The notes under the pieces: generated by a model
The model's input: the letters and a program-made list of their open reading frames with translations, nothing else
Told to the model about the DNA's origin: nothing
The model's database searches: none
Position numbers and translations under genes: made by a program
Assembly (NCBI GenBank): GCA_965224685.1
Contig: CBDDAB010000016.1
Location: 6,426 to 70,425, forward strand
Direction: 5' to 3'
Length of the DNA stretch: 64,000 bases
From: Verrucomicrobiales bacterium
GTDB lineage: Bacteria; Verrucomicrobiota; Verrucomicrobiia; Verrucomicrobiales; DEV007
Shown here: positions 4,586 to 61,339 of the stretch, in pieces
Layout: the number at the start of each line of letters is the position of its first letter
Position numbering within the stretch: the stretch's first letter is position 1

Positions 4586-4608
4586 ATGTTCGTTAATTAA
4601 TTACAAAG

Positions 4609-5499: not shown

Positions 5500-5550
5500 T
5501 GGCGAGGATTAATGAGAGTTGATGGGTTCAAGTATAAATAAAAGAAATCG

Positions 5551-7650: not shown

Positions 7651-7690
7651 GGTGCCTGGTCCTTTTTGAGGAACAACGAAATACCTAACG

Positions 7691-21153: not shown

Positions 21154-21984
21154 TTATCGGTCAAACAAGGCTCGCACATGAGCAAGTTCTTCGTCGAGAT
21201 CAGACGTCCCCCCTAGCGTTTGCATCACTTCATGGCGAAAAAGCTCTCCAAAGCGTTTGCGCAGACGATGAACCTGCATCTTGATGGCTGGTTGCGACGT
21301 ACCCATGACCTTGGCAGCCTCTCCATAGGATTGGGCACCCGGGTTCTGCTGAAGGAAAGGTGAAATCGTTTCAAAGAGCTTCTGCATATCACGCTTGGCG
21401 AACTCTTCCCGCAGACGCTCAATGACCCGCTCCATGAGCGAGAGGGCCCAACGCTTCTCAAAAAGCTCGTCCGGTGTGGTCTTCTCTGCCGGTTCCAAGC
21501 CGTACCAATGTTCGGCTTCGGCATGATTGATCGAAATGATCTGGCGTTTCCCGCCACGCTTCTCAGCCGACGCCCGGCGTCGCTTGTCCGCAACGAATCG
21601 GCGTAACAATGCTAGAAAATAGGAGCGAAGTTTGCCTTTGGTAGGATCCACTTCCGCGAGATGATCCTTTTCCACGAACCACGCGATGAAGTCTTGTGTG
21701 ATATCCTCCGCATCCTCCACGCCGAATCCGCTACGGCGCACGAACGCATAAATCGGTTTCCAGTAGGCGCCACACAAAGTCTCTAACGCTTCTGCCGGAT
21801 CCACCGGTTTCGCTTGGGCCGCTTCCCCGCCTTGCGCACTGATGACCAAACTCCAGCGCGTGCGCGGAAAACTGCTGGGCGTGGAAGTTGCAGGTTCTTC
21901 GGCCACGCCGGTGAGGTTAAGCTGCGTGGCCAGTCGGCTCAACGATTTCTGAGCTTGGGTGTTGGCTGGTAGGACGTCGTTCAC
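21154..21984 (-). CDS. ECF-like sigma-70 factor, of the Planctomycete/Verrucomicrobia-type kinase-associated group.
   Basis: Region 2-like DITQDFIAWFVEK and region 4 HTH (SYGEAAKVMGTSQPAIKMQVHRLRKRF). It ends 10 bp before the start of the giant kinase gene on the same strand. Confidence 0.75.
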   Translation of the reverse strand: MNDVLPANTQAQKSLSRLATQLNLTGVAEEPATSTPSSFPRTRWSLVISAQGGEAAQAKPVDPAEALETLCGAYWKPIYAFVRRSGFGVEDAEDITQDFIAWFVEKDHLAEVDPTKGKLRSYFLALLRRFVADKRRRASAEKRGGKRQIISINHAEAEHWYGLEPAEKTTPDELFEKRWALSLMERVIERLREEFAKRDMQKLFETISPFLQQNPGAQSYGEAAKVMGTSQPAIKMQVHRLRKRFGELFRHEVMQTLGGTSDLDEELAHVRALFDR

Positions 21985-22084: not shown

Positions 22085-25000
22085 TTACCGGGCCGCCTCC
22101 ATGGCTTCGAGGCGCTCGATGCGCATCGCCCGCACCCGGACGTAGCCTTCCTCTTCCGGCCGATTGATCTGGATCACCTCTGCGGCGTTCAGACCTGATT
22201 CGATAGTCTGCCACTCACGAAGGTTCTGCGAGAATTCCAAACGATAGAGCGTGTTGGCTTCCCCGCCGGTAAGGCGCAATCGCAGCGATTTCGATCCCGC
22301 ATTCAAGAATTCCAGCGCCAGCTCGCCTTCAGCAGGCGCGGGAATGGCTTCGTGCAAAGACTCCATTGGTGTCAATGCCAGTTGAATGCGATTGAAATCG
22401 ATGGAGCGGATCTGCGTGTCACAAGAGCAGTCGTCGTCACTGCTGATATCCGCGCCACCCGTGTCACCAATGATCTCCATTTGACTGACAAGCCCACCGG
22501 TAATCGACGGTGTGTGCACTTCGCCATCGCCACAGCCACCAATCTCAAATCCCGCCGCACGGCTCACAAAATCGACCGAGGATTCTGTCGACGTGAGGAT
22601 TCCCGCGATCTTCATCCCCGCCGGAGCGGTGTAGAGTTCGTTCACCCAAGTGCCGCGTGTCTCCGACCGATCTCCTCCCGTTTCTCTAGCATTGAAGTCG
22701 ATCACGGCATGGAGCCGGGTCTTGCCTTCATTCAGTTGCAAACGCACCGTCGACTGAATGCGAGGGCCGTTCCCACCGAAGTCGCGGTCGCCACGCACCA
22801 GTTCATTGAGACAAAGAACGCCAACCGACGGAGACAAATGCACGGTCCTCTGCGGACGCGACATGTCGTAGGCCCGGCGTTCACACTTTGCCCACATCTG
22901 ACAGAAATATTCTGCTCCGGAGAACAAACGATCATGTTCGGCCTGGGTCATCCCGGCACTCCGCATGCTTTCCACGTAGTCCGGCAAGAGACCATAGTGC
23001 GCAAAGCCTTCCTCATTGAAATCCCACGTCTTGGTTCCCGTGACGCACTTTGTAAGGTTAGAGCCATAACTGATACGCTCATCCCCGGGTGGTGGACCGG
23101 GAAGTGGATAAAGTCCGTTCACATCGGATCCAAAGGCCACTTGACGATTGCCCATGATTTCACTGGCCGCGCGAAATTGTTCCACGAACTGGCCGGCACC
23201 ATCGCCGTGCCCCACGCCAAAGACGCCTCCCAAGGCGCGGATATTGCGCAATTGATCCACCGTGCGGTCATTCTCCGTTCCATCATCACCACGCAATTGA
23301 TTGTGCCCCGAATTCAAAGGATAATCATTGCGGAAAGCGATGTTCATGGTGTCCGCGACCGCTTTCTCAGACATATGATCAATATCGACCATCATGCCGC
23401 GTTTCATCATATAATCCACCGCATAACGGCCACGATCCGTGAGCCCTAGTGAATTGCGATGACCACCACGGATGCCGGGATCGGCATAGAAGGGATAATT
23501 ATCCGGATTATTCGGCATCACGTGCCCGGGAATAACCGTGCCCGTGAAGTTCATGAGAAACGTTCCCACAAGGGGAAACTCCGCATAAGGAGAGAGCATC
23601 TTGTAAGTGATCCCCGTCGTGCGAGCATCCACGACCTCCGGCAGAAATGGGCTTCCCGTGTTATACTTGTTCGCCACATTAAACTCTGTTTGATAAATGG
23701 CCGCGCCGCCAAAGACGTTATTGGTCACATGAACGGGAAACATATAACGAACGCCCAAGTCGTAAAGACGATCAATCTCCGCGCGCATCTCGGCCTCCGA
23801 TGGAATGGGATTATAAACCCCGCCTTTCTTGTCCACTGGATCGTAGAAATTCCCGATATTATCCATCTCCGATCCAAGGATCACTGCTAGACGACCACTT
23901 CGCACAATGCGATCGAGATCATTCGAAGTGTAGGCGATTTCCATGAAATCGTGATGTCTGCCGATGAATTCTTTCAGTTTCTGAATCTGCAGATTCATGG
24001 AACGCAAGTCATCATTGTAACCGCTAGTCTCCGCGCCATCAGCAATGCAGTGATTGCTCACCGCAAGCGCGACCATCACTCTAAGACCACCATCTTTGGC
24101 ACGGCGAATCCATTCATACCACATCAATTGATGCAATACCGAATCGTGCCGCGGCCAAGAACGGAAATGGGGATAACCCGCTTCCTTCGTATGCGGATCC
24201 AAGTCATCGACCATCGCATTGCGAAAAGCGTTCATTTGATCACAGAAAGCTTCATCGACTGGCAGGACAAAGTTATGAATGCAATTACAAGAACCCAAGG
24301 CAATATGGGGATCGCCGTCGTTGCCGCCGTGAAATAATTCTTCTCCGAAGCCATATTGCGCAACGGGGTGCGTGTGCATATCGATCATTCCATAAAGCGG
24401 CTTACGTTCCACCGGCCCGTTATCGAAAGATCCCTCGTCGACCGACAGCACGTGAAACTTGACGCCTCGTGTCATGGCGGCGCGATCTTCATTCAAAATA
24501 CGCCATTCGCCTTGACTATACCAAACGCCCACATCGTGCCGATTGTAAAAACCGGCCCAATGCTGCGACACCAAGACCACGCGATCTGGATGGTTATTAG
24601 TAGAAGCATGATCAATCGCCGTCCAATTTCCAACCGGCGCAGCGGCTTCAACCAAAGTCGCACGGTCATCGAGGATGACATTGAATTTCGCGTTCTCCGG
24701 CATGGCGGCGAGATCTTGGTTGAAGATGCGCCATATCCCGTCACTTGAATAATAGATCCCTATCGGATGATCATTATAAACGCCCTCCCACCGTTGAGTG
24801 ATCAGAGGACGGGCATTGGGGTTCCCATTCAATTTCGGGTGATCCAATTGCGTGACATTTCGCGTGATGTTTTCAGCAGATGCCGTATGCACAAACGCCG
24901 ACTCGCTCGGCGGTACGACCAAGACATTCACATGGAGATTATCTGGGATCGCTGCGCGATCCTGATTAAAAAGCCGCCATTGCCCTTGGACATAATAAAC

Positions 25001-25234
25001 GCCCAAGGAACTGGGATTATAAGGGCCAAGCGTTCCGAAATCGGGTGTGATCATCACGATCTGATTCGGCTTTCCGTTCAGACTCTCGTGATCGATCACT
25101 GCGGTGTGGCCGCTAGGCGACTCCATAACATAGTTGAATGCCGTTTGCCCCATCAGAGGCACCGACATGACAAAGCACATCGCGGCGCCATAGAACAAAT
25201 GGCGTCGCCGTGCAGACAAAGGTTTCGTATTCAT
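22085..25234 (-). CDS. Secreted 1049-aa protein. It has an N-terminal signal peptide, three tandem ~75-aa repeats, a central M19 membrane-dipeptidase-like (amidohydrolase superfamily) domain and a C-terminal beta-rich region.
   Basis: Signal peptide LFYGAAMCFVMSVPLMGQTA. Three repeats share the pattern IDH..LNG.PN...L.TQ.W.G.YN.H.IG.YYS..G.WRIFNQD.AAMPE..FNV. The central segment (MIDMHTHP, LAVILGSEMD, VDIDHMSEKA, VAFGSDVNGLYPLP) resembles M19 dipeptidase metal-binding motifs (VGIGSDFDG-like). Confidence 0.4.
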   Translation of the reverse strand: MNTKPLSARRRHLFYGAAMCFVMSVPLMGQTAFNYVMESPSGHTAVIDHESLNGKPNQIVMITPDFGTLGPYNPSSLGVYYVQGQWRLFNQDRAAIPDNLHVNVLVVPPSESAFVHTASAENITRNVTQLDHPKLNGNPNARPLITQRWEGVYNDHPIGIYYSSDGIWRIFNQDLAAMPENAKFNVILDDRATLVEAAAPVGNWTAIDHASTNNHPDRVVLVSQHWAGFYNRHDVGVWYSQGEWRILNEDRAAMTRGVKFHVLSVDEGSFDNGPVERKPLYGMIDMHTHPVAQYGFGEELFHGGNDGDPHIALGSCNCIHNFVLPVDEAFCDQMNAFRNAMVDDLDPHTKEAGYPHFRSWPRHDSVLHQLMWYEWIRRAKDGGLRVMVALAVSNHCIADGAETSGYNDDLRSMNLQIQKLKEFIGRHHDFMEIAYTSNDLDRIVRSGRLAVILGSEMDNIGNFYDPVDKKGGVYNPIPSEAEMRAEIDRLYDLGVRYMFPVHVTNNVFGGAAIYQTEFNVANKYNTGSPFLPEVVDARTTGITYKMLSPYAEFPLVGTFLMNFTGTVIPGHVMPNNPDNYPFYADPGIRGGHRNSLGLTDRGRYAVDYMMKRGMMVDIDHMSEKAVADTMNIAFRNDYPLNSGHNQLRGDDGTENDRTVDQLRNIRALGGVFGVGHGDGAGQFVEQFRAASEIMGNRQVAFGSDVNGLYPLPGPPPGDERISYGSNLTKCVTGTKTWDFNEEGFAHYGLLPDYVESMRSAGMTQAEHDRLFSGAEYFCQMWAKCERRAYDMSRPQRTVHLSPSVGVLCLNELVRGDRDFGGNGPRIQSTVRLQLNEGKTRLHAVIDFNARETGGDRSETRGTWVNELYTAPAGMKIAGILTSTESSVDFVSRAAGFEIGGCGDGEVHTPSITGGLVSQMEIIGDTGGADISSDDDCSCDTQIRSIDFNRIQLALTPMESLHEAIPAPAEGELALEFLNAGSKSLRLRLTGGEANTLYRLEFSQNLREWQTIESGLNAAEVIQINRPEEEGYVRVRAMRIERLEAMEAAR

Positions 25235-25531
25235 GGTTACTTCGTTTCTGAGTTCATTGATGGCGTTGAGAACGCACTCGTTTCACCTCGCCTAATGGCC
25301 AACGACGCAACGAAGTAACGAACAATGAGGTGTGGCTTGGCCGTGAACTGAGCAGTTAGGGATTGCGGGCGAGAGGAACGGCGTTCGCGGCGATGAGCGC
25401 CCTGCCACTCACGCGAATATGGGAGCAACGAGTTCCTCTACGTTGACCACCATTCTAAGCACACTCCCGAATTCAGGCTCGACCTGCGGGCGGGGCGAGT
25501 TAACCTATGTCCTCGTAACAATGAGTGACTG

Positions 25532-25855
25532 ATGATAACGATTGCGAGATTCCAAGCCCCTGAGGAGGCGCATTTGTTTAGCGGGTACCTTGAGGCGAAC
25601 GAGATTCCGGCTCACGTATTCGATGAACATACAGTGCAGGTTGCATGGTATTTCAGCAACGCCATCGGCGGCGTGAGAGTTGTCGTAGATGAAGGAAATG
25701 CTGAAGAGGCCAAACATTTGTCCCAAGATTACTTTGAATGTTTATTGGCGGAGCCGAGAATAATCACGGTAGCCAGAGCATGGCCGCTAGTTTTCTTGCT
25801 TTCACTTATTGTGGGGATTCCGACACTCCTCTTCGGCAGACGGACTGCGCAATGA
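25532..25855 (+). CDS. DUF2007-like small protein with a C-terminal TM helix.
   Basis: The N-terminus MITIARFQAPEEAHLFSGYLEANEIPAHVFDEH matches the DUF2007 (putative signal-transducing) pattern. C-terminal hydrophobic helix WPLVFLLSLIVGIPTLLF. Confidence 0.5.
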   Translation: MITIARFQAPEEAHLFSGYLEANEIPAHVFDEHTVQVAWYFSNAIGGVRVVVDEGNAEEAKHLSQDYFECLLAEPRIITVARAWPLVFLLSLIVGIPTLLFGRRTAQ

Positions 25856-25935
25856 GTTCGGTTACCGGATGGTCGCCGGCACTACAGGATTACCGATCAG
25901 TCTCTGCGCAAGGGGCTTGAATTCGGTGAATGGCT

Positions 25936-28900
25936 TTACGCCGAATCATCCGTTTTCTGTTTCACCTTTGAGTCAACGGCGACGGGAAGTTCCTGAGTGG
26001 GTTCAGGGGCGTCTTTACCTGCATGAACCGGAACAACTTTGATTTCCACATCAACGGGCACGGAGCGAAGTCCGGCGATGATCTTCTCCAACTGGGAGAC
26101 GGTGTCATCGGCCAGGGTTGCCGGTTGCGAACGGTCCTTGGCCGCTTCGGCGATCGTTTTCTCGATTTGATTGATACCAGTGGTGAAGGCGGAGAGTTGG
26201 CCAACGATCCGGGATACGGGATCGTTGTCTCCAGCGCCGCCAACTAGCAGATTGCGTTGGAAAGTCTCCTTGATGTCTGCCCAGCGGGCGGTTTCTTCTT
26301 CGGTGAGTGCCTCCTCCATTTCTTTGAACTTGAGGAGATTCGCTTCAGCACCGGTAGTGAGAGTTTGGGCTTCGTTCTCGTAGTGATCATGAATGACTCC
26401 TATCACTTCCTCATCAGTCATGATGGGAAGGATCTTTTCTGCAATGCGGTTCATATTGCGGTAGGAACCTTGCAGCTTGAACGGAGGTTCCGTTCGGTAT
26501 TCGTCCGCTTGGGCTGCGGAGCGAATGTATTCGAGATTCACACGGAGAATGGTATCCCGTACGCGGAATAGTTTTTTCATCACCGCAACGAGTTCGGTGA
26601 CTTCTTCGGCACTGTAATTACCCTCGAATTCGGCGCCGTCTCGTCCACCTGTGGTCGCGATCTGCATGATGGCGTAAACGTCTTTCTGACTCTTTGCAGC
26701 AAGCGTATTGAGTACGGCATTACTGGTTAGGCAGTTCTCAATATAGGAGTCTTTAAACGCGTCCGCATGCCCCCCGATGATGTCACCAAGGTTGTACGTG
26801 TCTGCGCGGTTGGCGAGCATGTCCGGAATCTGGAATTTGCCGCCTTGTTCGGTGTAGGGATTGCCCGCCATGACCACCGCCACTTTACGACCTCGAAGAT
26901 CGTAGGTTCTGGCCTTGCCGTTGAAGACACCCTCCATGCGACGTTGGCCGTCACACAATGAAATAAACTTCTGCAAGAACTCCGGGTGACAATGTTGGAT
27001 ATCATCGAGATAAATCATCACGTTATCCCCCATCTCCAACGCGAGATTGAGCTTGTTCACCTCTTCGCGTGCACTGGCGTTCGGAGCTTCGTTGGGATCA
27101 AGCGACGTGACCGTATGACCAATGGCCGGGCCGTTGATCTTCATAAACGTCAATCCTAAACGATCCGCCACGTATTCCATGAGCGTGGTTTTCCCGTAAC
27201 CCGGAGGTGAGATGAGTAATAGCAGCCCCATGCGATCGGCACGCGTCTCTTCTCCGGCAACGCCGATCTGTTTGGCGAGATTATCGCCGATGAGAGGAAG
27301 ATAGACGCGGTCAAGGAGCCGGTTACGCACAAACGAACTCATGACCCGAGGCTTGAATTCATCGAGTCGCATCTTCTCTCGCTGATTTTTCGCTAAGGCA
27401 GCTTTGCCGTGGGTGTAACGTTCATACACTGGAACGACATTCTGACAAAACGCCTGCAAGCGGTTCATGAATCGATTGTAGTGTAAGCTGTATAGTCCTT
27501 CATCAACAACCGAATGGGAACCAAGCATCCCTTTGATATCGCATGAGATAGCCACTTTTCCGGTAGCAGAGACATCGCTACCGCGAAGCAAATGCACGCT
27601 AGCTTCGTTGAGATAGGGATGCCCCGAAGAAAAACCGCTTAGCCAATCGCGAATGACTTCAAAACGATCTAACGGATGTTTCTCCAGTTTCTTTATGATC
27701 TCTTGAAAGCGCGCTTGTTGACGCTTGCCGGTAAGATGCGTTTGAAACTCTTTTATCAACTGAGCCGCTTCCGGGCTCGCGGTGACGTGTTTGGCATTGG
27801 CCAACTCATAAAGAAGATACTCCGCGGCTTGAAGATTGGCGCCGTTCTCAATCACGGGTGGCATCTCGGCCAGCCGTTGATGGAGCACTTCAATATAGTG
27901 CTTTTGTTCATCGCGATCTGGAAACAATTCTTGGACGGCACCGAAGGAAAGCAGCTGATGCTCGAGCACTTTCTTGTCGTCATCCTCCACCCAGGACTCC
28001 CAAAGCAATAGGCCTTTCGCTCTAGCATCCGCGTCATAGCGCAATAAACCGATCGACTCGCGGATGCGGTAAAGTTCCTTTAGTAGTAAGAGCGCATCGT
28101 GATCATGGACACCTTTGGTATAGCCTTCTGCATAGCGAGGCGCCATGAATTGGCGGAGATCATCTTCGTTCTCCGATCGGGACTCATTGGTGAGAAAGAA
28201 TCGGTAGGCTAAATACTCGGAACGATAGATATCGCTGTTCTCAGAGATCAGTTCCTGTTCCCAAACGGACTCCGTCTCAAGAAAATCAGGATCGCTGATC
28301 GCCTCAAAATACCGCGTGCCCGTTAAGTGATAGCACATGGTGTCTTCATGGGGAACGATGGTGAGTTCCAAGTCTTGTTGATTGACGGAAAAGCGGTGAT
28401 TGCCGAATTGGATAATGTTTTGTCCATCAACATAGAGCTCGCGACGGTCTTTAAGTTGACGGACAGCTTCTTCCCGCAAGGTCTTGAGTTGCGTCTGAAT
28501 GCCATCTGCTTTGACTGGATCGTCAAGCTCCTGCAACTGGACGACAATATCCCGCACCTTCTCGATCATCAAATCAGAGGCGAGATAAGCATTGATCTCT
28601 GAGATCTCTTCAAATCCCGCGAGGCGTTTCTGCACACCCTGAAGAATGCGCTCGGCGGATTTTTGAAGGTTATTGGCTCGCTTGTTTCGCGACTCGACTA
28701 AGCTTACTTTTCGCGATTCGAAAGCGTCATAAACTTCGGTGCGTTTATCCGAGAGCTCGGAAACAAAGTCGTCAAACTCCGCATACTTGCTTTCGAGTTC
28801 CTCCAATTGCACCATCACCTTAGTGAGGCTCTCCTCGCATTTCGCGGGTTCATCACAGAGATCGAGGTAATTAACCACGGCTTGATTAAGCAGTTTGATC

Positions 28901-30972
28901 TCGGCGTGAAATTGCGCACTGCCTTCCGCTTTGCCCAACTGAAGGACGCGGTTTTTTAACTCGACTTTGACTTGATTAAGAATCGAATAGAGGTCGGAAA
29001 TACTTTCGATGATCTGCGTGGTCTGCGTCGCATCTTCTATCTTCAAGTTGCCAACGATTTCGATCAATAGCTCAAGCTCGTGACCGGCTTCATTGAGCTG
29101 CTCACCGACTTCTTTTCCCTCCGCGACCTTCGCCACTTTGGCGACCGCAGCTTTCTGTTCCTCGATCGCTTGGCTATATGGGTCTAAGGCTTCCGGTTTA
29201 AGGAGAAAAGCGACACATCGTTGGGAAAGGCGTTCGGTGACCTCTTGAATCTCGGCTTCCAGGGCATCGACGGCTTTGGTATCGGCATATCGCAGGTCTC
29301 TTATAGATATGGTTTCGCCGCGGACAGTGCGTAGTTCAGACAGATGATGAACGAAGCCCATGATGTCATCTGGAGCACTGTGCTCCGCTTGGCTCATGAG
29401 CCTGCGTGCCCTGGTCGTCACGTCCTCAGATTCGCTCGCGGCGGTTTGACGAAGTCGAAGGACTTTATCGAATTCGTCAATAGCCGATTGAGCAGCCGTT
29501 TGTAGCGCTGTTAACGGTTCCTTAAGACGATGGGCCTCGGCATGATCAATCCAGAAATAGCTATTGGCAATATCGGCCGTGCGTTTCGCTAAATCGACGT
29601 AGAGATCCGCATAGGTATCATCTTTATGAAGCAAATTGAGCACTTCATGACACTCCGCCATGCAGCGCACGATTTCCGCATTGCCGAGTTTATAAAGATA
29701 ATGATCGCTCTTCGCGGTGGCAAGTTGGATATCGGGATCGTGATAGGGCGTTTGCCAAACCTGCAGGACGTGATGCTTTTGTGGTTGATCTTCGGTGCGG
29801 AAATAAACGAGTTCACCATTCGGAAAGACACTATATCCGTGGCAAGAAATGGGCGTATCGACCTGACGACCGATCACATTATAGGACATAAGGATATAGT
29901 CCCCCGACGCGCGATTGTAGAAAATATAAAAGTAATCCTCACCGTTCGGTGCCGCAATTCGTCGTTCGAAAAGCATCTTGGAGAGACCGCTCTCGAAAAG
30001 TTTGGTCTCACCGCTTTGTAGATGAAACCCGTTTGAAAAGATCACGCCGTGATCGTCCGGCAGGAGAACGCACGAGTCCTCAATCGAATCCACACGGGTC
30101 ACCGATTGCAGCTTCTCGTTGTAAATGAAATACCGAAAAGCGTCTTCCTGGTAAGGGCGAATTTTAACGAGAATGAGATTGCCAATAAGGGCATAGAAGA
30201 TCTCGGCGTCGTCTAAGGTCTGATCAACTTCCTCGACGGGTTCAGCATAAATGCCCTCACCGGATTCGGTGTTATCCTCAATCTTGATCGTCAGATCGCC
30301 ACCGACGGTTTCGACAAACAAGCGGTCCTCAATGGAAACGTGAGGATGGTCGCCACTTCGTTGCATATCGCGGTGGGCGCGCGTCCATTCAAACTCCTGT
30401 TGTTCAGGAAATTGATATTCGTGATCAAAACGATTTCCTAGATACTCCAGTTGGCCGTTTCCGTGAAGTAGCCATTTGAAAGTCTTGATATCAGTCACAT
30501 CACGCCCCGTGCGAAAAGCCATATAGAGATGTGGTCCAATCAGGAGAAACTTCGCAAATACCGTTTGTTTGTAATACTTGTAGAGATGCCCAAAGTCGTA
30601 GAGGAAATTGTCGTCACGAAGAATCTCTTCGACCGGCAGGGCGCTGAAACGATGGCTTTCTGCATCGTACTGATAGGTGGCAAAGACATCCGCTGGGGCC
30701 GTCGTGGACTTGAGGCCGATATGCACATTGAAGCCAAAGAGAAAACGTCCGCCACCAATGGCCACCATATCCCGGGGAATACAGTTGTTAGGGGTCGTGA
30801 CACGCTCCGTGGCGACAAGCTCCGGTTCCACGGCGCCGAACACCTCTTGGCGTTCGGCGTTGAGTTTGGTTAGCCGGGTCCGGAGATCTTCGCCATGGCT
30901 CGAGAGCCGCTGGCGAATGATCTCATACGTGCCTCCATCCAGGGTATCCGGCGTTGCTGAGTCCTCTGGCAT
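25936..30972 (-). CDS. Giant 1678-aa protein. It has an N-terminal beta-rich region, a central long coiled-coil/helical region and a MoxR/AAA_5-like AAA+ ATPase module at aa ~1230-1420. It is translationally coupled to the upstream flotillin gene.
   Basis: Walker A ISPPGYGKTTLMEY at aa ~1257 (nt ~27185-27200). Walker B VMIYLDDIQH at aa ~1320. A sensor-like VVMAGNP. Heptad-rich E/K/L segments occupy the middle third. The start ATG (30970-30972) is separated from the flotillin stop (30974-30976) by one nucleotide. Confidence 0.6.
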   Translation of the reverse strand: MPEDSATPDTLDGGTYEIIRQRLSSHGEDLRTRLTKLNAERQEVFGAVEPELVATERVTTPNNCIPRDMVAIGGGRFLFGFNVHIGLKSTTAPADVFATYQYDAESHRFSALPVEEILRDDNFLYDFGHLYKYYKQTVFAKFLLIGPHLYMAFRTGRDVTDIKTFKWLLHGNGQLEYLGNRFDHEYQFPEQQEFEWTRAHRDMQRSGDHPHVSIEDRLFVETVGGDLTIKIEDNTESGEGIYAEPVEEVDQTLDDAEIFYALIGNLILVKIRPYQEDAFRYFIYNEKLQSVTRVDSIEDSCVLLPDDHGVIFSNGFHLQSGETKLFESGLSKMLFERRIAAPNGEDYFYIFYNRASGDYILMSYNVIGRQVDTPISCHGYSVFPNGELVYFRTEDQPQKHHVLQVWQTPYHDPDIQLATAKSDHYLYKLGNAEIVRCMAECHEVLNLLHKDDTYADLYVDLAKRTADIANSYFWIDHAEAHRLKEPLTALQTAAQSAIDEFDKVLRLRQTAASESEDVTTRARRLMSQAEHSAPDDIMGFVHHLSELRTVRGETISIRDLRYADTKAVDALEAEIQEVTERLSQRCVAFLLKPEALDPYSQAIEEQKAAVAKVAKVAEGKEVGEQLNEAGHELELLIEIVGNLKIEDATQTTQIIESISDLYSILNQVKVELKNRVLQLGKAEGSAQFHAEIKLLNQAVVNYLDLCDEPAKCEESLTKVMVQLEELESKYAEFDDFVSELSDKRTEVYDAFESRKVSLVESRNKRANNLQKSAERILQGVQKRLAGFEEISEINAYLASDLMIEKVRDIVVQLQELDDPVKADGIQTQLKTLREEAVRQLKDRRELYVDGQNIIQFGNHRFSVNQQDLELTIVPHEDTMCYHLTGTRYFEAISDPDFLETESVWEQELISENSDIYRSEYLAYRFFLTNESRSENEDDLRQFMAPRYAEGYTKGVHDHDALLLLKELYRIRESIGLLRYDADARAKGLLLWESWVEDDDKKVLEHQLLSFGAVQELFPDRDEQKHYIEVLHQRLAEMPPVIENGANLQAAEYLLYELANAKHVTASPEAAQLIKEFQTHLTGKRQQARFQEIIKKLEKHPLDRFEVIRDWLSGFSSGHPYLNEASVHLLRGSDVSATGKVAISCDIKGMLGSHSVVDEGLYSLHYNRFMNRLQAFCQNVVPVYERYTHGKAALAKNQREKMRLDEFKPRVMSSFVRNRLLDRVYLPLIGDNLAKQIGVAGEETRADRMGLLLLISPPGYGKTTLMEYVADRLGLTFMKINGPAIGHTVTSLDPNEAPNASAREEVNKLNLALEMGDNVMIYLDDIQHCHPEFLQKFISLCDGQRRMEGVFNGKARTYDLRGRKVAVVMAGNPYTEQGGKFQIPDMLANRADTYNLGDIIGGHADAFKDSYIENCLTSNAVLNTLAAKSQKDVYAIMQIATTGGRDGAEFEGNYSAEEVTELVAVMKKLFRVRDTILRVNLEYIRSAAQADEYRTEPPFKLQGSYRNMNRIAEKILPIMTDEEVIGVIHDHYENEAQTLTTGAEANLLKFKEMEEALTEEETARWADIKETFQRNLLVGGAGDNDPVSRIVGQLSAFTTGINQIEKTIAEAAKDRSQPATLADDTVSQLEKIIAGLRSVPVDVEIKVVPVHAGKDAPEPTQELPVAVDSKVKQKTDDSA

Positions 30973-30973
30973 C

Positions 30974-33028
30974 TTAACCAGCCAATGACTTCATCACCTT
31001 GTTCGCTTTCTGATCGGCCAAGCCCAGGCGCTTGGCCGCCCCCAAGAGACTTTGCAGCTTCCCTTCAGTGGCTTGATCATCCGTGGTGGCGATCATTTGC
31101 CCTAGCAGACCGGCGATACTGAGATTCTTCAGATCTTCGGATGTGATGCCGAACTGATCTATCCATGTGGAGAGTTGCGATCTGAAGTAATTGGGATCGC
31201 CATTAAAGAAAGTTTCCTTAACGTCTGTTAGAGCACGGCTATTCTCAAGGGCGCGGTCAACGGATTTGCCGGTGGTGATCGCGCCGGCGATTTTATCAAA
31301 GAAGGCGGTTTCGCCGCCGATGATATCGACTCGAGCGTTCTCCAGCGCTGTGGAAACGACTTCCGAATGGCGTGAGGCGATCTCCTTCTGCGCCGTGATA
31401 TCGGCCAGTTCGACCACTTTCTGTTTCTCAAGCTGCAAGCGGAACTCCTCGTGATCTTTGCCTTCGCCATCGAACTGCTTCATGGCATCGGCTTTCTCGG
31501 TGATTCCCTTGGCTTCTGCGAGGGCCTTCAGTTCGGTGACCTTCGCTTCAGCGGCACCTTGTTTCTGCGTGGCAATGGCGGTCGCTTCAAGCACTTGCAC
31601 TTCACCCAAACCAGGTGCAGCGGTTTCGGCGGCGGTGGCATCAGCCAAGGTCTTCTTCGCTTCGGCAGTCTTGAGGGCGGCGGCTTGTTCGGCCTCGGCG
31701 GCTATGAGGATTTCCTCCGCATGCAATTCGGCCGATTCCTTCTGCGCTTCGGCAGCCTTGACGGTTTGATAGAGTTCTTCATCGGCTTTCAACTGAGCCG
31801 CTTCTTTGGCCGCTTCGGCTTCCTTGATCTTCTTCACCAGTGACTCTTGGGCCTCCATTTCTGCTAGAGTGACCTTCACTTGCTTCTCACGATCGGCACC
31901 GGCGAAGGCCTCAGTGTCTTTGATCTTTTCTTGTTCAATGACAACCGTTTTCTCGACGGCGACACGTTCTTTGATCACGTCTTGAATATTCTTCTTCTCC
32001 ACCTCTACGGCTTTGTCGCGCTCGATGCCCTTCAGGGCGGTAACGCGGTCGCGCTCGATGACCTCTAACATCCGGTCACGTTCCACGCGTTCGCCTTCCA
32101 CGGCATCGGTCCGCTCTTTATTCCGCTGGGCCACGATCACTTGACGGTTCTTATTCTCTTCGGCGATCTGCACCTCTTCTTCGGTGGCGATTCTTGCGCG
32201 TTCGGATTTCAGACGCTCCTCTTCGCGCACTTTCTCTGCTTCAGCATGTTCGCGGGCCTGAACGGATTCTACTTCGCGTTTCTGTTTCGCCTCGGTTTCA
32301 GCGAGCTGTCGGTTGAGTTCGAGGATCGCTTCTTCTGCTTCGACATCTTGTTGGCGAATAACACGTTCTTTATCGCGTTCGATCTGGTTGGCGAGCTTGC
32401 GTTGTTCCGCGGTGAGATCGGTGATCTTTTTAATACCCTCGGCATCGAGAATATTGTCAGGATTAAGCATTTCTAAGGAGGTCTGCTCCAAGTGATCAAT
32501 GGCGCAATCATCGAGGACGAATCCGTTCAGATCCGTGCCGATAATCTTGAGGATTTCTTCGCGGAAGGTGTCGCGTTCTTCATAGAGTTCGGCGAAATCG
32601 AAACGTTTGCCGACTGTCTTCAGAGCTTCCGAGAATTTCGCATCAAAGAGATCTTGAATCTCCTTCTGGCTGGAGGCGCGATCACATCCCACGGCCGCGG
32701 CGACGCGTTTGACGTCTTGTTCTTCGTTATTAACCCTGACAAAGAACACAACTTTAATGTCAGCGCGGAGATTATCTTTACAGATTAGACCTTCTTTGGC
32801 CATGCGTTGGATCTCGATGCGTTTCACGGAGATATCCATGATCTCCGAGCGATGAAGAACGGGGATGACGAGCATCCCGGAGAAGGAGACGCGCGTGCCG
32901 CCTTTGCCGTTCCGAACCAAGGCCTGACCTTGCTCGACCTTGCGATAGCATTTGATGATGAGGACGGCCAGACCCAAGCCAATGATGATGGCGGCCGCGA
33001 TAAGGAAGTAGAGGAGTGCTTGTGGCAT
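30974..33028 (-). CDS. yqiK: Flotillin-like SPFH/band-7 domain protein (YqiK-like) with a long EA-rich coiled coil.
   Basis: N-terminal TM (LYFLIAAAIIIGLGLAVLII). SPFH domain (GQALVRNGKGG...VIPVLHRSEIMDISVKRIEI...). ~350 aa of E/A/K-rich coiled coil and a flotillin-type C-terminal region. Confidence 0.85.
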   Translation of the reverse strand: MPQALLYFLIAAAIIIGLGLAVLIIKCYRKVEQGQALVRNGKGGTRVSFSGMLVIPVLHRSEIMDISVKRIEIQRMAKEGLICKDNLRADIKVVFFVRVNNEEQDVKRVAAAVGCDRASSQKEIQDLFDAKFSEALKTVGKRFDFAELYEERDTFREEILKIIGTDLNGFVLDDCAIDHLEQTSLEMLNPDNILDAEGIKKITDLTAEQRKLANQIERDKERVIRQQDVEAEEAILELNRQLAETEAKQKREVESVQAREHAEAEKVREEERLKSERARIATEEEVQIAEENKNRQVIVAQRNKERTDAVEGERVERDRMLEVIERDRVTALKGIERDKAVEVEKKNIQDVIKERVAVEKTVVIEQEKIKDTEAFAGADREKQVKVTLAEMEAQESLVKKIKEAEAAKEAAQLKADEELYQTVKAAEAQKESAELHAEEILIAAEAEQAAALKTAEAKKTLADATAAETAAPGLGEVQVLEATAIATQKQGAAEAKVTELKALAEAKGITEKADAMKQFDGEGKDHEEFRLQLEKQKVVELADITAQKEIASRHSEVVSTALENARVDIIGGETAFFDKIAGAITTGKSVDRALENSRALTDVKETFFNGDPNYFRSQLSTWIDQFGITSEDLKNLSIAGLLGQMIATTDDQATEGKLQSLLGAAKRLGLADQKANKVMKSLAG

Positions 33029-33049
33029 AATGGTGTGGTTAAATCGGGT

Positions 33050-33766
33050 TTATTCTGATGCTGTTATGAGTGAGGAATCGAGTTTGCGAACGAGGTAAGT
33101 TTGAGGTGATTCGTGTAGATCGACGACTAAAGCCTGATCGCCTTTGGATAGGGGCGGCTGCCCATCAGAGATCCTCACATTGATGAGAATCGGAGCACCT
33201 TGATCATCCTCAGCCTCGGCCTGGCCGAACTCGGTCGTGACCTCGCTGGTCTTGATCACGCAGGTGCGGCCAACGACCGGGCGGTGCTTTTCACCGGCCT
33301 TCAAGGAGCGCATCATGGGCTTAAGAGGCGCTGTGAGGAATTTGGTTAGGAAAAGACCGCCGATAAAACTCAGGCAGAGAAATCCGAAGGCGACGCCCAA
33401 TGACTGGCCTGGATTGTAGTAGTAATTGAGCAGAAGACAGGCCGCCCACATCAAGGTGATGAGAACCGAAACGAGGACCATGAGGGGAATCTCTCCGAGA
33501 TTGAAGAACCGGAACAGTCCAAGGCTGCCCGCATCGTGAGAATGATGCGCATGCGCGTCAGCATCGAGATCGGCGTCGGCATCCATATCAACATCCACAT
33601 CGGCGTCGACATCGATATCGGGTTCCAAGCTATCCGTGTCCACAGCTCCAAATATCGTCAGAATCCAGAATAGCAGGACTAATCCAAAGAGTACGGTAAG
33701 AGGAAAGTTATAAATCCTCAGTGCTTCCTGCAACAATTCGCTCATGGGTGCCAAGACAGTTTCCAA
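33050..33766 (-). CDS. yqiJ: NfeD-like membrane protein (YqiJ-like partner of flotillin).
   Basis: TM helices. An acidic/His-rich loop (DIDVDADVDVDMDADADLDADAHAHHSHD) as in YqiJ. A C-terminal soluble OB-like domain. It ends 21 bp upstream of the flotillin gene on the same strand. Confidence 0.7.
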   Translation of the reverse strand: METVLAPMSELLQEALRIYNFPLTVLFGLVLLFWILTIFGAVDTDSLEPDIDVDADVDVDMDADADLDADAHAHHSHDAGSLGLFRFFNLGEIPLMVLVSVLITLMWAACLLLNYYYNPGQSLGVAFGFLCLSFIGGLFLTKFLTAPLKPMMRSLKAGEKHRPVVGRTCVIKTSEVTTEFGQAEAEDDQGAPILINVRISDGQPPLSKGDQALVVDLHESPQTYLVRKLDSSLITASE

Positions 33767-33872
33767 TGGTGGCCACGTTATCGGTCACCGATGGCTTAGC
33801 GATTATAATGCCTTGAAGGCTTTGTAAAGAATGTGAAGCAGATTAACTGTTCGCGATCGTATCTAGACAAAT

Positions 33873-34595
33873 GTGAGAAAGGGCGGTTGCGACAAGGAGT
33901 TTTCCCGACAAACGATCTGGAGCCAACCAACTCCGATACCCTCGGGGCCGACACCTCCGCCCGCAGCGCCCCCATCATTGTTGCCGGCAGCGAAAACGTC
34001 GCGAGCTGCCATTCTCTCATTACTACTGGGCGTGCCCGCGCTCTTTATCGGCTTGCCACTTGGCATTCTCGCGCTTCTGCTAGGCTTTATCGCGCTGGCT
34101 CGGATCCGCGGTTCGAAAGGCCTCAAGAAGGGAAAAGGTTTGGCCATCGCCGGCATGGCTTTGGGCGCTATTGGATTGGCCATTTCGGCTTATCTGATCG
34201 TTCTCACCACCAAACACGGAATCGCTAATCAATCGGCCCTATCCAAAGCAGAAAGTCATATCATCTCCAGTAGAGAGGGTGTGTTCTACGGAAACACGGC
34301 GGAGGCCAAGATCGCCGCCAAGCGTTTTTCCGAGACCATGAAAACCCTGCGCGAATCCTTCTTTGAGGCGAGTGATGAGGAACGCTTCCTCACGAAAGAT
34401 GAGTTCGTGACACACTGTGAGATTCACGATGACACCTGGGGGCGTTCTTGGTTCACGTGCCGCAATGGCGCCGGTTTACGAAAGATGCGAAGGATTCGCT
34501 CTGCGATCTTGGTTGGTCCACGGCGCAACGCATCATTGAAGAGAGCGGCAGCTCTCCGACCCGGTTGGCGTCAAGGGCGTCTTGCTCTATCATAA
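33873..34595 (+). CDS. Hypothetical membrane protein with a DUF4190-like two-helix segment. The 3' region may be degenerate.
   Basis: Pro-rich N-terminus then LLGVPALFIGLPLGILALLLGFIALARI...AIAGMALGAIGLAISAYLIVL. All three + frames stay open over 34.4-34.75 kb, suggesting decay or a frameshift. Divergent from yqiJ. Confidence 0.3.
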   Translation: MRKGGCDKEFSRQTIWSQPTPIPSGPTPPPAAPPSLLPAAKTSRAAILSLLLGVPALFIGLPLGILALLLGFIALARIRGSKGLKKGKGLAIAGMALGAIGLAISAYLIVLTTKHGIANQSALSKAESHIISSREGVFYGNTAEAKIAAKRFSETMKTLRESFFEASDEERFLTKDEFVTHCEIHDDTWGRSWFTCRNGAGLRKMRRIRSAILVGPRRNASLKRAAALRPGWRQGRLALS

Positions 34596-34771
34596 CATCT
34601 ATGTGGGTAGATTTGATCCCACGAAAGAGAATGTTCGCACGCTTGTTCAAGAGAGGAGCAAGGACTCAGAGATTCTCGAGACGTTCTTTCCTGAACCGGA
34701 GGTCGTTTCCGACCCAGCATCCGCAGAAACGCCGTCGTAAAAGTGGGACGGGCGTGTTTGGCCGTCGGATC

Positions 34772-35539
34772 CTAGCGTCGACGTTTGAAAGGGTGCCAGA
34801 GTTGACCGAGGTAGGATCGGGGAATGGGTTCTTTAATCCCGAAGGCTTCTGGTTCGTGGCCGGGATGGCGATAGGTGCCGAAGAAGATATCCATCAAAGG
34901 CGATAGATTGGCGTAGTTCCCGGCATCGCGATCGCGGTCGTGATGCCAATGATGCAGTTCCGGCGCGCCTAGCAACATTCGCAATGGACCTAACGGAAGC
35001 TTGACATTGGAATGGATGTAGACGGCCCAGAGACCGCGGAAGGCAAAGAACCCCGCGAGCATTTCTAACGGAAAACCTAAGAGGAATGCCGGCAGATTGA
35101 TAATGGTGACGGTGTAAATGGTGTCTAACGGATGTTCGCGATGCGAAGCCAGCCAGTCGAGGTGTTCCGCGCTGTGGTGTACGGCATGGAATCGCCAAAG
35201 AAAGCCCACGCGGTGTTGTAGCCGATGGCCCCAGTAAATGAACAGATCGCTGAGAAAGATCAGCTCAATCACTTGCAACCAGAAAGGTTGCGCAGCCACC
35301 GCCGATCTGAAAGACGTCGGAATGAGGGCGGTGAGCCAATTGCCAAAAGCCGCGATAGCGGTGAAGACGAGACCTGACCAAAGGAGGTATTGTCCTAACA
35401 AGAAGAACAAATCGGTCCACCATTCCGGTCTAAAGAACTTCTGGTCTTTGGCAGGAAAGCATTTCTCCAAAGGCCGGAAGACCGCGACAAGCGCCAGGAT
35501 GCTGGCACCGGTCATGAGGATGGTGAGCGGCCAAGTCAT
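34772..35539 (-). CDS. Fatty acid hydroxylase / sterol desaturase family membrane protein.
   Basis: Histidine boxes HRLQHR, HAVHHS, HHWHHD. Multiple TM helices. Confidence 0.75.
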   Translation of the reverse strand: MTWPLTILMTGASILALVAVFRPLEKCFPAKDQKFFRPEWWTDLFFLLGQYLLWSGLVFTAIAAFGNWLTALIPTSFRSAVAAQPFWLQVIELIFLSDLFIYWGHRLQHRVGFLWRFHAVHHSAEHLDWLASHREHPLDTIYTVTIINLPAFLLGFPLEMLAGFFAFRGLWAVYIHSNVKLPLGPLRMLLGAPELHHWHHDRDRDAGNYANLSPLMDIFFGTYRHPGHEPEAFGIKEPIPRSYLGQLWHPFKRRR

Positions 35540-35546
35540 CGGGATG

Positions 35547-36140
35547 TTAGTCTTCTTCCGATGGCGTTGTTGAGTCGCTAATGCGTGGATCGATTACCGG
35601 AAACTTGATTGGCGGAAGAGGGATATCGAGGCCGCGATTGGGAGACTTTGAACCCACCATGAGATCAGCTTCAGATGGCAGCGTGGGCTTCGGCGCGAGT
35701 TCAATGGGAACCATTATGGCACTTTTCGAACTTGGGCTCAACATCTGCGGTGAAAAGGGAACGTCTTTAGCAACGTTGGCCCACGACTTCGAACCTGAGA
35801 TGAGTTCGGAGCTCTGGAATTGAGGTTCTTCTGGAACGGTCTCCTCAACTGCCTCCGCGATTCTTCTAGTAGAAAAGATGGGATTCGAAATGGACTTCGA
35901 ACTGAGAGCCAGGCCATCGGCAGTGGTGATCGGACCACCCATATCGATGAATTCCACAGGCTCGTCTTCGGGTGCGGCGGGTGTTTCAACGTTCTGCTCA
36001 ATTCTCGCTTCTCGCTTGGTGTCCGCCTTGTGTTGCGTCCACCACACGTAGCTTGCAGTGAGCGTGACCGCCGAACAAACGGCGGTGATTCCTAGCAATC
36101 GTGCGGCAAGAGATCGTGGCTGGGTGGAGGAATTGTTCAT
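35547..36140 (-). CDS. Hypothetical membrane-anchored protein. The start is taken at an internal Met because the upstream part would overlap priA.
   Basis: MNNSSTQPRSLAARLLGITAVCSAVTLTASYVWW is a TM helix, followed by a low-complexity Pro/Ser-rich periplasmic region. It lies 8 bp upstream of the hydroxylase gene. Confidence 0.4.
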   Translation of the reverse strand: MNNSSTQPRSLAARLLGITAVCSAVTLTASYVWWTQHKADTKREARIEQNVETPAAPEDEPVEFIDMGGPITTADGLALSSKSISNPIFSTRRIAEAVEETVPEEPQFQSSELISGSKSWANVAKDVPFSPQMLSPSSKSAIMVPIELAPKPTLPSEADLMVGSKSPNRGLDIPLPPIKFPVIDPRISDSTTPSEED

Positions 36141-36270
36141 GACATGGGCGTGAAGGTGAACCCATAGCAAAGGTGCCAGACGTGCGCCCTCAGAAAGTTG
36201 TAAGAAAGCCGTCATCCATCCCCCCAATAAAAGGACAGTCCTTTTAAAGAAAAAGGATTGCGCGCGTAGG

Positions 36271-38484: not shown

Positions 38485-38505
38485 GGATGGTTGGGCGTAA
38501 TGAGA

Positions 38506-38943
38506 TTACGCTGGTGCGGACTCGCGCCGAACATACTGTTTGAAGAGACTCACCATGCTGAAGGTCATTTCGTGAGCGAGGTCGATGTCCGTCGTTTCCA
38601 TGGGTTCATCGAGGATATTGGAAAAGCCCTCACTGTTTTCTAGCGCCGCTTTGTCCACCAAATGAAACCCCATGCTCCAGTCCCCAAAGTTCCGTTTATC
38701 AATTGGTTGATCATAAAGCTTGTTGAGATCGGTGTGTCGGGGATCCTTGGAAATGCGGTCGTAGAGTTCGGTTACCGGTTGGGCCTCGCCTTCTAACGCT
38801 TGCAAAAAACAACCAGCTTGATAGAGTAGCAGGCCCGTGATATTCACCTGTTCATTGTTCCGGCGGGACTGATCAAGCAGTTGTTGCAGGTCTTCGGCGT
38901 TCATGGGCTGGGTGGCCCGGCTGAGGTAGATGAGCATCTTCAT
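38506..38943 (-). CDS. Short BLUF-domain blue-light photoreceptor (FAD-binding).
   Basis: BLUF signature in order: IYLSRA (conserved Tyr), ITGLLLY, FLQALEG (conserved Gln), LYDRISKDPRH, FGDWSM (Trp/Met). Size is 145 aa, like BlrB/PixD-type short BLUF proteins. Confidence 0.8.
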   Translation of the reverse strand: MKMLIYLSRATQPMNAEDLQQLLDQSRRNNEQVNITGLLLYQAGCFLQALEGEAQPVTELYDRISKDPRHTDLNKLYDQPIDKRNFGDWSMGFHLVDKAALENSEGFSNILDEPMETTDIDLAHEMTFSMVSLFKQYVRRESAPA

Positions 38944-60660: not shown

Positions 60661-60679
60661 TCATGTCTACACAGTGTAG

Positions 60680-61333: not shown

Positions 61334-61339
61334 ATTTGG

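Follow-up and report, generated by a model that had tools for sequence, protein, structure and literature searches.

A family of bacterial ATPases is defined by the Pfam domains DUF3686 (PF12458) and DUF7902 (PF25472) followed by a C-terminal AAA+ module, and carries the NCBI product name 'DNA repair ATPase'. The operon and the architecture of these proteins were set out by comparative genomics in 2024 (mSystems; PMC11237479). That study assigned the operon a chaperone-like or membrane-remodeling role and found an 'abbreviated' operon without PspA to be widespread. In literature searches on DUF3686, PF12458 and 'DNA repair ATPase' combined with flotillin, this analysis of PSP genomics was the only work mentioning the family, and the literature searched contained no experiment, structure or interaction data for any DUF3686–DUF7902–AAA+ member. 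As for the partner proteins, the SPFH protein YdjI ties PspA to the membrane in B. subtilis, according to the passages citing that result in PMC7619361 and PMC10936438.

Here we describe a member of this family encoded in a 64,000-nucleotide stretch of a Verrucomicrobiales contig (hereafter the window). The ORF list and translation recovered a single uninterrupted ORF of 1678 codons at 25936–30972 on the minus strand, just as the original prediction had it, and Pfam matches identify the product as a genuine, intact DUF3686–DUF7902–AAA+ protein. One database protein (P0001) is 100% identical to it, and its closest database relative is 68% identical. The window protein and the published family have in common the domain set, the domain order, the length class of 1600–1900 residues and the gene order; the locus matches the 'abbreviated' operon without PspA and differs in nothing essential.

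The family is large: clustered at 90% identity, it still counts over 4,400 protein clusters from many phyla, and residues 1–700 of the window protein matched 972 clusters at 50% identity. Among the matches listed, all 120 homologs have the identical Pfam set. Identity of the ATPase to members from other phyla is 47–60%. We also collected 70 divergent full-length homologs; all are at least 1480 residues long, most fall between 1600 and 1900, and they share one layout. The architecture, which had appeared unusual in the original prediction, is thus normal within its own family. Nor is the protein a new kind of membrane-tethered motor, as had been proposed, since its domains are already in Pfam and the operon has been published. 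The window protein is the Verrucomicrobiales ortholog of a computationally known family and represents no new class of system. The expectation that homologs would be found under the name 'ATPase involved in DNA repair' was borne out by both the NCBI name and the Pfam description of DUF3686.

The operon and its conservation

The ATPase gene is the third and last gene of an operon transcribed from the minus strand. The first gene (33050–33766) encodes a 238-residue YqiJ/NfeD-like membrane protein. Its match to YqiJ_N (E = 6.7e-4) is below the curated cut-off; among its orthologs, 15 of 29 match YqiJ_N (best E = 3.5e-8) and 2 of 29 match NfeD. The second gene (30974–33028) encodes a YqiK-like flotillin of 684 residues with a transmembrane segment, an SPFH/band-7 domain and a long coiled coil. 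The full-length flotillin gave no match in the Pfam search, and Band_7 was detected with the N-terminal fragment, residues 1–223 (E = 3.7e-15). A single nucleotide separates the flotillin stop codon from the ATPase start codon (TAA-G-ATG). A promoter and terminator scan of positions 25300–34800 gave signals at or below shuffle expectation.

We then asked how typical this arrangement is. It turned out that 59 of 61 informative loci have a flotillin gene upstream of the ATPase gene and in the same orientation, and that a YqiJ-like gene precedes the flotillin gene in 57 of the 61. The linkage spans at least ten phyla. Moreover, loci whose ATPase is more similar to that of the window tend also to have a more similar flotillin (r = 0.77 between the two identities). 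The genetic tie to flotillin, which the original prediction had read from this one locus, thus holds in nearly all of this set, and the homologs do share the flotillin neighborhood, a point that the prediction had put forward as a check. The further proposal, that the ATPase is physically attached to flotillin and acts as a motor, would be an inference from this gene order.

Of 80 loci, 17 have PspA as a neighbor. The PspA-linked loci belong to Bacteroidota, where the gene (PF04012, E ~1e-40) lies directly upstream, to one Phycisphaerae locus and to a Pseudomonas megaplasmid; on megaplasmid pQBR103 the gene cluster reads YjfI-PspA-...-SPFH-ATPase. There is no PspA gene within the 64-kb window, and the operon has the short three-gene form. 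One ORF (35547–36296) gave a marginal match to PspA (E = 0.015) but on inspection proved to be a low-complexity membrane protein.

Domain architecture of the ATPase

The protein was modeled with AlphaFold2 as two halves, residues 1–840 (mean pLDDT 84) and 841–1678 (mean pLDDT 79). From the N- to the C-terminus, the models consist of a helix, a β-propeller, a set of long helices, a small β-domain, a second helical domain, the AAA+ core and an enlarged lid. The original prediction of a β/helical/AAA+ protein in three parts therefore stands in its broad plan, and the limits of the middle part and of the AAA+ module have been redrawn. All feature coordinates below refer to the minus strand.

The N-terminal helix (residues 13–45; 30838–30936) leads into the DUF3686 domain (residues 29–473; 29554–30888), for which the Pfam match covers the complete profile (positions 1–448 of 448; E = 2.4e-183, 610 bits). 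According to DSSP, the core of this domain in the model is a β-propeller with some 26–27 strands between residues 51 and 407, corresponding to about 6–7 blades. Foldseek searches with the propeller returned generic propellers only, such as the DCAF1 WD40 domain, prolyl oligopeptidase and paraoxonase. The N-terminus had been noted as rich in Tyr and Phe and β-like; indeed, aromatic residues (F+Y+W) make up 14% of residues 50–420 versus 5% of residues 420–840, and the N-terminal part, with the propeller, is predicted to be all-β.

Next comes the long-helix region (residues 425–840; 28453–29700), which encloses DUF7902 (residues 594–675; 28948–29193; PF25472, E = 1e-26). Within this region the heptad pattern exceeds the 99th percentile of sequence shuffles only in residues 458–532, 620–689 and 701–794. 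The model of residues 1–840 shows several helices of 20–58 residues joined by short loops, and no single long arm, so the likeness to an SMC or dynein stalk put forward earlier is not borne out. The predicted coiled-coil middle of about 600 residues fared better in part: long helices with heptad-like periodicity are present, but they extend over about 415 residues and are followed by two domains of another kind. These are a small six-stranded β-domain (residues 845–892; 28297–28440) and a second helical domain with shorter helices (residues 917–1130; 27583–28224), neither of which had a match in the Pfam search. From about residue 1000 onward lies the least conserved stretch before the AAA+ module, with conservation of 0.25–0.37 across residues 1001–1200. 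A β-hairpin and a long linker helix (residues 1143–1201; 27370–27546), the latter with a heptad-like signal in residues 1159–1196, connect to the AAA+ module in the model.

The AAA+ module and its relatives

The α/β core of the AAA+ module (residues 1205–1397; 26782–27360) shows the highest conservation in the whole protein, and Pfam AAA and AAA_5 matches fall within it, at residues 1251–1376. We assessed conservation in an alignment of 71 sequences, namely the 70 divergent homologs and the window protein. The Walker A motif GYGKTT (residues 1258–1263; 27184–27201) and the Walker B motif IYLDDIQH (residues 1320–1327; 26992–27015) share one C-terminal AAA+ domain at a distance of 60 residues; these verified coordinates agree within 3 nt with those given earlier (about 27185–27200 and 26995–27018). 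The two glycines and the lysine of Walker A are kept in 70–71 of the 71 sequences, and Walker B residues Asp 1323, Asp 1324, Gln 1326 and His 1327 in 70 each, so that both motifs are conserved in orthologs. Walker B has Asp-Asp in place of the usual Asp-Glu. Sensor-1 Asn 1371, in the motif MAGNPYTE (26860–26862), is likewise kept in 70 of 71 sequences. Two arginines are present in all 71: Arg 1389 in IPDMLANRAD (26806–26808), a candidate arginine finger judging by its position in the AAA+ fold, and Arg 1505 in LQGSYRNMN (26458–26460), whose position in the lid makes it a candidate sensor-2 arginine. The module thus carries a complete, family-invariant set of nucleotide-binding and hydrolysis motifs and is apparently active. 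The original picture holds in that the protein has just one AAA+ module, placed C-terminally behind a long series of β and helical parts.

An enlarged helical lid with a C-terminal helical extension (residues 1398–1635; 26068–26781) follows the core in the model, and a heptad-like segment (residues 1573–1653) falls in this region. The tail (residues 1636–1678; 25939–26067) is poorly conserved (0.11–0.14) and modeled with low confidence (pLDDT 40–60). The module had been correctly located but placed at residues ~1230–1420. Because it starts at about residue 1205 and includes the sensor-2-like Arg 1505, it is larger than that range and reaches at least residue ~1510, with the helical extension continuing to ~1635.

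Which AAA+ clade does the module belong to? The label 'MoxR-like' can be upheld in part. The match to AAA_3 (PF07726) reaches only 12 bits (E = 0.2) and is confined to the P-loop, and AAA_lid_2 (PF17863) is not matched in the Pfam search. A genuine MoxR protein encoded in the same window (46283–47233) scores 209 bits with AAA_3 and 79 bits with AAA_lid_2; BLASTP aligned it with the ATPase over the P-loop alone, and hhalign gave the pair a probability of 50%. Neither a vWA nor a DUF58 partner was found by Pfam in the operon or the flanking genes. The ATPase also differs from MoxR-class and AAA_5 proteins (CbbQ, NorQ, midasin and the dynein AAA units) in having about 1200 residues of N-terminal domains fused to the module. 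The helix-2 β-hairpin of the MoxR class is not predicted in the conserved 20-residue loop after strand β2 of the monomer model (pLDDT 86–92), yet hhalign pairs this loop with the MoxR insert.

The hairpin pattern, as predicted, would fit the Hsp100 D2/HCLR clade (ClpA, ClpB, Skd3/CLPB, RuvB, HslU and ClpX). A pre-sensor-1 β-hairpin is predicted between helix α3 and strand β4 (residues 1345–1358; 26899–26940), with DSSP assigning strands to residues 505–510 and 513–518 of the 841–1678 model (pLDDT ~80–88). Foldseek searches with the AAA+ model ranked ClpA, ClpB, Skd3 and RuvB on top. These proteins are ring-forming remodelers or translocases. However, the ATPase differs from this clade too, having a single AAA+ module, a very different N-terminal region, Asp-Asp versus Asp-Glu in Walker B and no conserved aromatic pore loop. 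In Clp-type unfoldases, the aromatic pore loop follows strand β2; the corresponding loop of the ATPase has the consensus NGPxLGHxVTSLDP in the homolog alignment, with no conserved aromatic residue. In Pfam searches, neither AAA_2 nor ClpB_D2-small matched the ATPase, AAA_2 being absent even at E values up to 10; an NCBIfam search yielded only sub-threshold RuvB matches. PDB sequence searches, which used both the protein and a profile of 39 sequences as queries, produced P-loop-level matches only (19–26 bits) and found no solved structure of any DUF3686–DUF7902–AAA+ relative.

Possible roles of the ATPase

We consider it probable that the protein, like other members of its family, uses ATP to remodel membrane assemblies of flotillin (SPFH) or PspA, because its gene almost always directly follows those for flotillin and the YqiJ/NfeD-like protein. 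Two kinds of evidence underlie this proposal, gene order and fold class. The AAA+ module would oligomerize, probably into a ring, like its structural neighbors CbbQ/NorQ/midasin and ClpA/ClpB/RuvB. ATP would then drive remodeling or disassembly of a protein assembly at the cytoplasmic face of the inner membrane. The likeliest target would be the flotillin oligomer itself or the PspA (ESCRT-III-like) polymers recruited there, and the propeller and helical region may serve as a substrate- or partner-binding spacing arm. A threading mechanism is not assured, given the missing aromatic residue in the loop after β2. The Asp-Asp of Walker B and the lack of a PspA gene in the window also count against the proposal.

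As a functional analogy only, Vps4 acting on ESCRT-III and FtsH in the HflK/C SPFH cage are also AAA+ machines tied, genetically or physically, to a polymer that scaffolds a membrane; for the ATPase, the tie consists of the conserved operon it forms with flotillin and, in many cases, PspA. One could tentatively go further and see in the family a bacterial functional counterpart of Vps4, non-homologous and docked on flotillin, whose propeller and helical arm would grip flotillin cages or PspA polymers and whose ATPase would disassemble or recycle them in membrane repair. According to a 2025 review (PMC7619361), a Vps4-like ATPase 'appears absent in bacteria'; if true, this possible role would fill that gap.

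Alternatively, ATP binding and slow hydrolysis might gate flotillin/YqiJ assembly or recruit partners, with the protein acting as a nucleotide-dependent switch or scaffold and doing no unfolding or pulling. The Asp-Asp of Walker B suggests that hydrolysis may be slow and switch-like, and the invariant Asp-Asp-Ile-Gln-His resembles the DDIQF of the ATP switch DnaA, a point in favor of this alternative. The absent pore-loop aromatic points the same way, and some 1200 residues of non-catalytic propeller and helical domains would suit a scaffold. On the other hand, an invariant sensor-1 Asn, candidate arginine finger and candidate sensor-2 arginine are typical of working hydrolases, and the closest folds are active remodelers. 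On balance, we regard a pure switch or scaffold as rather unlikely.

Some anti-phage or conflict systems pair MoxR-type ATPases with β-propellers, and flotillin could be the membrane effector of such a system. The fusion of a β-propeller to an AAA_5-like module fits this idea, as do the patchy phyletic spread, the signs of horizontal transfer (including pQBR103) and defense-type neighbors of the ATPase at two loci, a STAND NTPase with TPR at one and an NgoBV restriction endonuclease with a C5 methylase at the other. Yet at these two exceptional loci the defense genes seem to have been inserted in place of the partner genes. Searches of PADLOC-DB v2 at E <= 0.01 matched none of the three operon proteins, and the vWA partner is absent. 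In addition, the high cross-phylum conservation of the ATPase and its fixed order alongside membrane-homeostasis genes (flotillin, YqiJ, PspA) are unlike what fast-evolving defense genes show. A role in defense is therefore improbable.

That the protein is an SMC/Rad50-like DNA repair ATPase, as its database name has it, seems very improbable. The idea draws on inherited names (Pfam DUF3686 'ATPase involved in DNA repair' and the NCBI product name) and on weak RuvB_N matches of ~19–25 bits, restricted to the Walker A region. No SMC, Rad50 or ABC match was obtained; the P-loop lies in a single C-terminal AAA+ domain and not in an ABC-type head split by a coiled coil. Pfam detected no DNA-binding, nuclease or SMC-hinge domain, and the neighboring genes encode membrane proteins, not repair proteins. 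Finally, action as a track motor or a membrane-fission machine of the dynein or dynamin kind can be dismissed as the least probable role, the sole P-loop being of AAA+ type and neither Pfam nor NCBIfam revealing a dynamin or GTPase family, in keeping with the early remark that the protein has no GTPase motif and is not a dynamin.

The database name 'DNA repair ATPase' is misleading. The window offers a clean example of the three-gene operon, and with it come a revised domain map and a set of invariant catalytic residues that could be mutated. SPFH proteins, flotillins among them, and PspA/ESCRT-III polymers hold a central place in the organization and repair of bacterial membranes, and a very large, highly conserved ATPase that is operon-locked with flotillin in many phyla is an obvious candidate for the turnover of flotillin/PspA assemblies.

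Domain architecture and conserved catalytic residues

The ATPase gene is a single unbroken open reading frame of 1678 codons on the minus strand (25936-30972), as seen in the ORF list and the translation, and a public protein collection contains an identical protein (P0001). Pfam assigned DUF3686 (PF12458), described as 'ATPase involved in DNA repair', to residues 29-473 (E 2.4e-183), DUF7902 (PF25472) to residues 594-675 (E 1e-26), and both AAA (PF00004, 32.7 bits) and AAA_5 (PF07728, 32.4 bits) to residues 1251-1376. The protein is almost certainly a member of this family.

We modeled the structure with AlphaFold2 as two halves, each from an alignment with 37 homologues, and obtained mean pLDDT values of 84 (residues 1-840) and 79 (residues 841-1678). 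The model starts with a helix (13-45), followed by an all-β region of about 26-27 strands (51-407), long helices of 20-58 residues each connected by short loops (425-840), a small six-stranded β domain (845-892), a second helical domain (917-1130), a hairpin with a long linker helix (1143-1201), and the AAA+ α/β core (about 1205-1397), in which a pre-sensor-1 β-hairpin (1345-1358) lies between α3 and β4. An enlarged helical lid with an extension reaches to about residue 1635, beyond which the C-terminal tail is of low confidence. A heptad test, comparing hydrophobic a/d occupancy with that of shuffled sequences, flagged residues 458-532, 620-689, 701-794, 1159-1196 and 1573-1653. The original prediction of a β-rich N-terminus, a helical middle and a C-terminal AAA module thus holds in outline according to Pfam and AlphaFold2, but its 600-aa coiled coil shrinks to a heptad-rich part of about 340 aa. 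Nor does the helical middle run straight into the ATPase, as two further domains are modeled between this part and the ATPase.

The aromatic richness noted for the N-terminus is real: F, Y and W make up 14% of the first 420 residues versus 5% of the following 420. Foldseek matched the all-β region to generic β-propellers only, such as the DCAF1 WD40 domain, prolyl-oligopeptidase propellers and paraoxonase. Within the propeller stretches at residues 68, 276, 343-346, 364 and 399-401 (about 29770-30771 of the window, minus strand), D68, E276, G344-E345-D346, Y364 and H401 are invariant among homologues that share only 30-52% identity with the window protein. This acidic/His cluster could be a ligand-, metal- or peptide-binding site.

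Walker A (GYGKTT, residues 1258-1263, nt 27184-27201, minus strand) and Walker B (IYLDDIQH, residues 1320-1327, nt 26992-27015, minus strand) lie essentially where they had been placed. We aligned the window protein with 70 divergent full-length homologues (26-52% identity over residues 1-700). The Walker motifs proved conserved in orthologues: G-x-G-K of Walker A and D-D-I-Q-H of Walker B are each kept in 70-71 of the 71 sequences, as are sensor-1 Asn1371, the candidate arginine finger Arg1389 (IPDMLANRAD) and the candidate sensor 2, Arg1505 (LQGSYRNMN). Column conservation is highest in the AAA+ core (0.70-0.80, versus 0.25-0.58 elsewhere).

Relationship to MoxR and other AAA+ proteins

The window also encodes a genuine MoxR (46283-47233, plus strand), which matches AAA_3, the family of MoxR proper (PF07726), with 209 bits (2e-62) and carries AAA_lid_2. 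In contrast, the AAA+ module of the ATPase scores only 12 bits against AAA_3, and we rejected membership in the MoxR family. BLASTP aligned the two proteins only around the P-loop (E 0.007), and hhalign gave 50% probability over residues 1249-1443. In a Foldseek search of PDB the top matches of the module were ClpA D2, CLPB/Skd3, ClpB NBD2 and RuvB, with NorQ merely at ranks 41-42, while sequence and profile searches of PDB returned nothing beyond P-loop-level matches. On this evidence we place the module, a deeply divergent AAA+, no more closely than in the pre-sensor-1-hairpin group. The label 'MoxR/AAA_5-like' is defensible at the fold level, but not as a family assignment. Downstream of this MoxR gene, in place of the usual DUF58/vWA partner, lies a gene for a protein carrying Lamin-tail, CHB_HEX_C and Fn3_assoc domains (46283-48501 for both, plus strand).

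A conserved gene order with flotillin

The gene upstream of the ATPase is, as originally proposed, a flotillin (30974-33028, minus strand), with a TM, SPFH/band-7 and coiled-coil layout. The full-length protein had no matches in Pfam or NCBIfam, and residues 1-223 alone matched Band_7 (E 3.7e-15); probably, the long charged coiled coil sets off HMMER filters. Automated annotation may overlook SPFH proteins of this kind. Its stop codon is one base from the ATPase start (TAA-G-ATG). 5' of flotillin lies a YqiJ/NfeD-like membrane protein gene (33050-33766, minus strand; YqiJ_N, E 6.7e-4), 15 of whose 29 orthologues match YqiJ_N (best E 3.5e-8) and two NfeD. With a divergent neighbor on one flank (DUF4190, 33873-34595, plus strand) and a convergent neighbor on the opposite flank (DUF2007, 25532-25855, plus strand), the unit is a three-gene operon.

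The ATPase family exceeds 4,477 clusters at 90% identity (E <= 1e-10), and 972 clusters at 50% match residues 1-700. Among the matches listed, the nearest relatives are Verrucomicrobiales proteins sharing 57-68% identity, most of which carry the name 'DNA repair ATPase', the type of annotation anticipated. Scanning one genome per species yielded 80 loci in Verrucomicrobiota, Planctomycetota, Bacteroidota, Desulfobacterota, Kiritimatiellota, Omnitrophota, Fibrobacterota-like Chitinispirillaceae and Clostridia; a plasmid collection added Pseudomonas, Proteus, Vibrio, Photobacterium, Halomonas, Streptomyces, Nonomuraea and Deinococcus.

The flotillin neighborhood is indeed shared. Where at least 5.5 kb upstream of the ATPase was available (61 loci), flotillin lies upstream on the same strand in 59 and the YqiJ-like gene in 57. 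Across 61 loci, the ATPase is 47-60% identical to its counterpart in the window, flotillin 46-69% and YqiJ 25-39%. The values for the ATPase and flotillin are correlated (r = 0.77), compatible with the two genes moving together, although shared phylogeny alone would also yield a correlation. Only two of these loci (L009, 1414-4978; L069, 668-3774) lack both flotillin and YqiJ upstream. Next to the ATPase, one of the two has a STAND NTPase plus a TPR protein and the other an NgoBV restriction endonuclease plus a C5 methylase; these may be defence islands inserted into the operon or replacing part of it.

PspA (PF04012, about E 1e-40) is present in 17 of the 80 loci and absent from the 64-kb window. 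In Bacteroidota and one Phycisphaerae locus, its gene immediately precedes the YqiJ-like one. The Pseudomonas fluorescens SBW25 megaplasmid pQBR103 (NC_009444.1, 84437-97641) carries a ten-gene cluster with YjfI(CesT)-PspA, in the annotated order YjfI, PspA, rhomboid, DUF2491, DUF350, DUF1190, glutathionylspermidine synthase, a hypothetical protein, SPFH and 'DNA repair ATPase', and so offers a tractable experimental system.

Elsewhere in the window, a 276-aa ECF-like sigma factor (21154-21984, minus strand) immediately precedes, on the same strand, a 1941-aa protein that combines a Ser/Thr kinase domain with several WD40 β-propellers (15319-21144). A 1049-aa protein (22085-25234, minus strand) fuses three DUF7452 repeats to a membrane-dipeptidase (Peptidase_M19) domain, and PriA helicase, a 145-aa BLUF blue-light sensor and a Rce1-like CAAX protease are consecutive at 36271-39944 (minus strand). 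G+C is 0.44-0.48 at 4001-8000 and 60001-62000 versus about 0.54 elsewhere; these stretches may be acquired segments.

Proposed function

Operons combining CesT/Tir-PspA, a YqiJ/YuaF-type membrane protein and further genes have been described, abbreviated versions without PspA being widespread, and a chaperone-like or membrane-dynamics role was proposed (Ravi et al. 2024, PMC11237479). The window operon is this system. Our literature search found no mention of DUF3686 or PF12458 and no experiment on the ATPase family. According to a 2025 review (PMC7619361), bacteria appear to lack a Vps4-like ATPase. For B. subtilis, the SPFH protein YdjI is cited as the link between PspA and the membrane (PMC7619361, PMC10936438).

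The data show the domain layout, the conservation of the catalytic residues and that of the gene order; the mechanism is inferred. We tentatively propose that the AAA+ module, by analogy with its structural neighbors, would form a ring and spend ATP on remodeling or taking apart a protein assembly associated with the membrane, most likely the flotillin oligomer or PspA polymers, with the propeller and helical region serving as a docking arm.

The main rival, that the protein is an ATP switch or scaffold performing no mechanical work, we consider rather unlikely. In its favor, Walker B is Asp-Asp throughout the family instead of the usual Asp-Glu (hhhhDE), and in the 71-sequence alignment no aromatic pore-loop residue is conserved in the loop after β2 (NGPxLGHxVTSLDP). 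DnaA, an ATP switch, has a similar Walker B (DDIQF). The family's Walker B may indicate slow or regulated hydrolysis. Action in a defence system is improbable, and a part in DNA repair very much so, the 'DNA repair ATPase' label being unsupported by domain content or context. That the ATPase is a motor moving along a track is scarcely credible.

The new kind of membrane-tethered motor originally envisaged gives way to a described system with thousands of family members. The window reveals no new class of system: its ATPase adds a new member to a family known from computation and untouched by experiment, and the role of this conserved flotillin-operon ATPase is a worthwhile and directly testable question.
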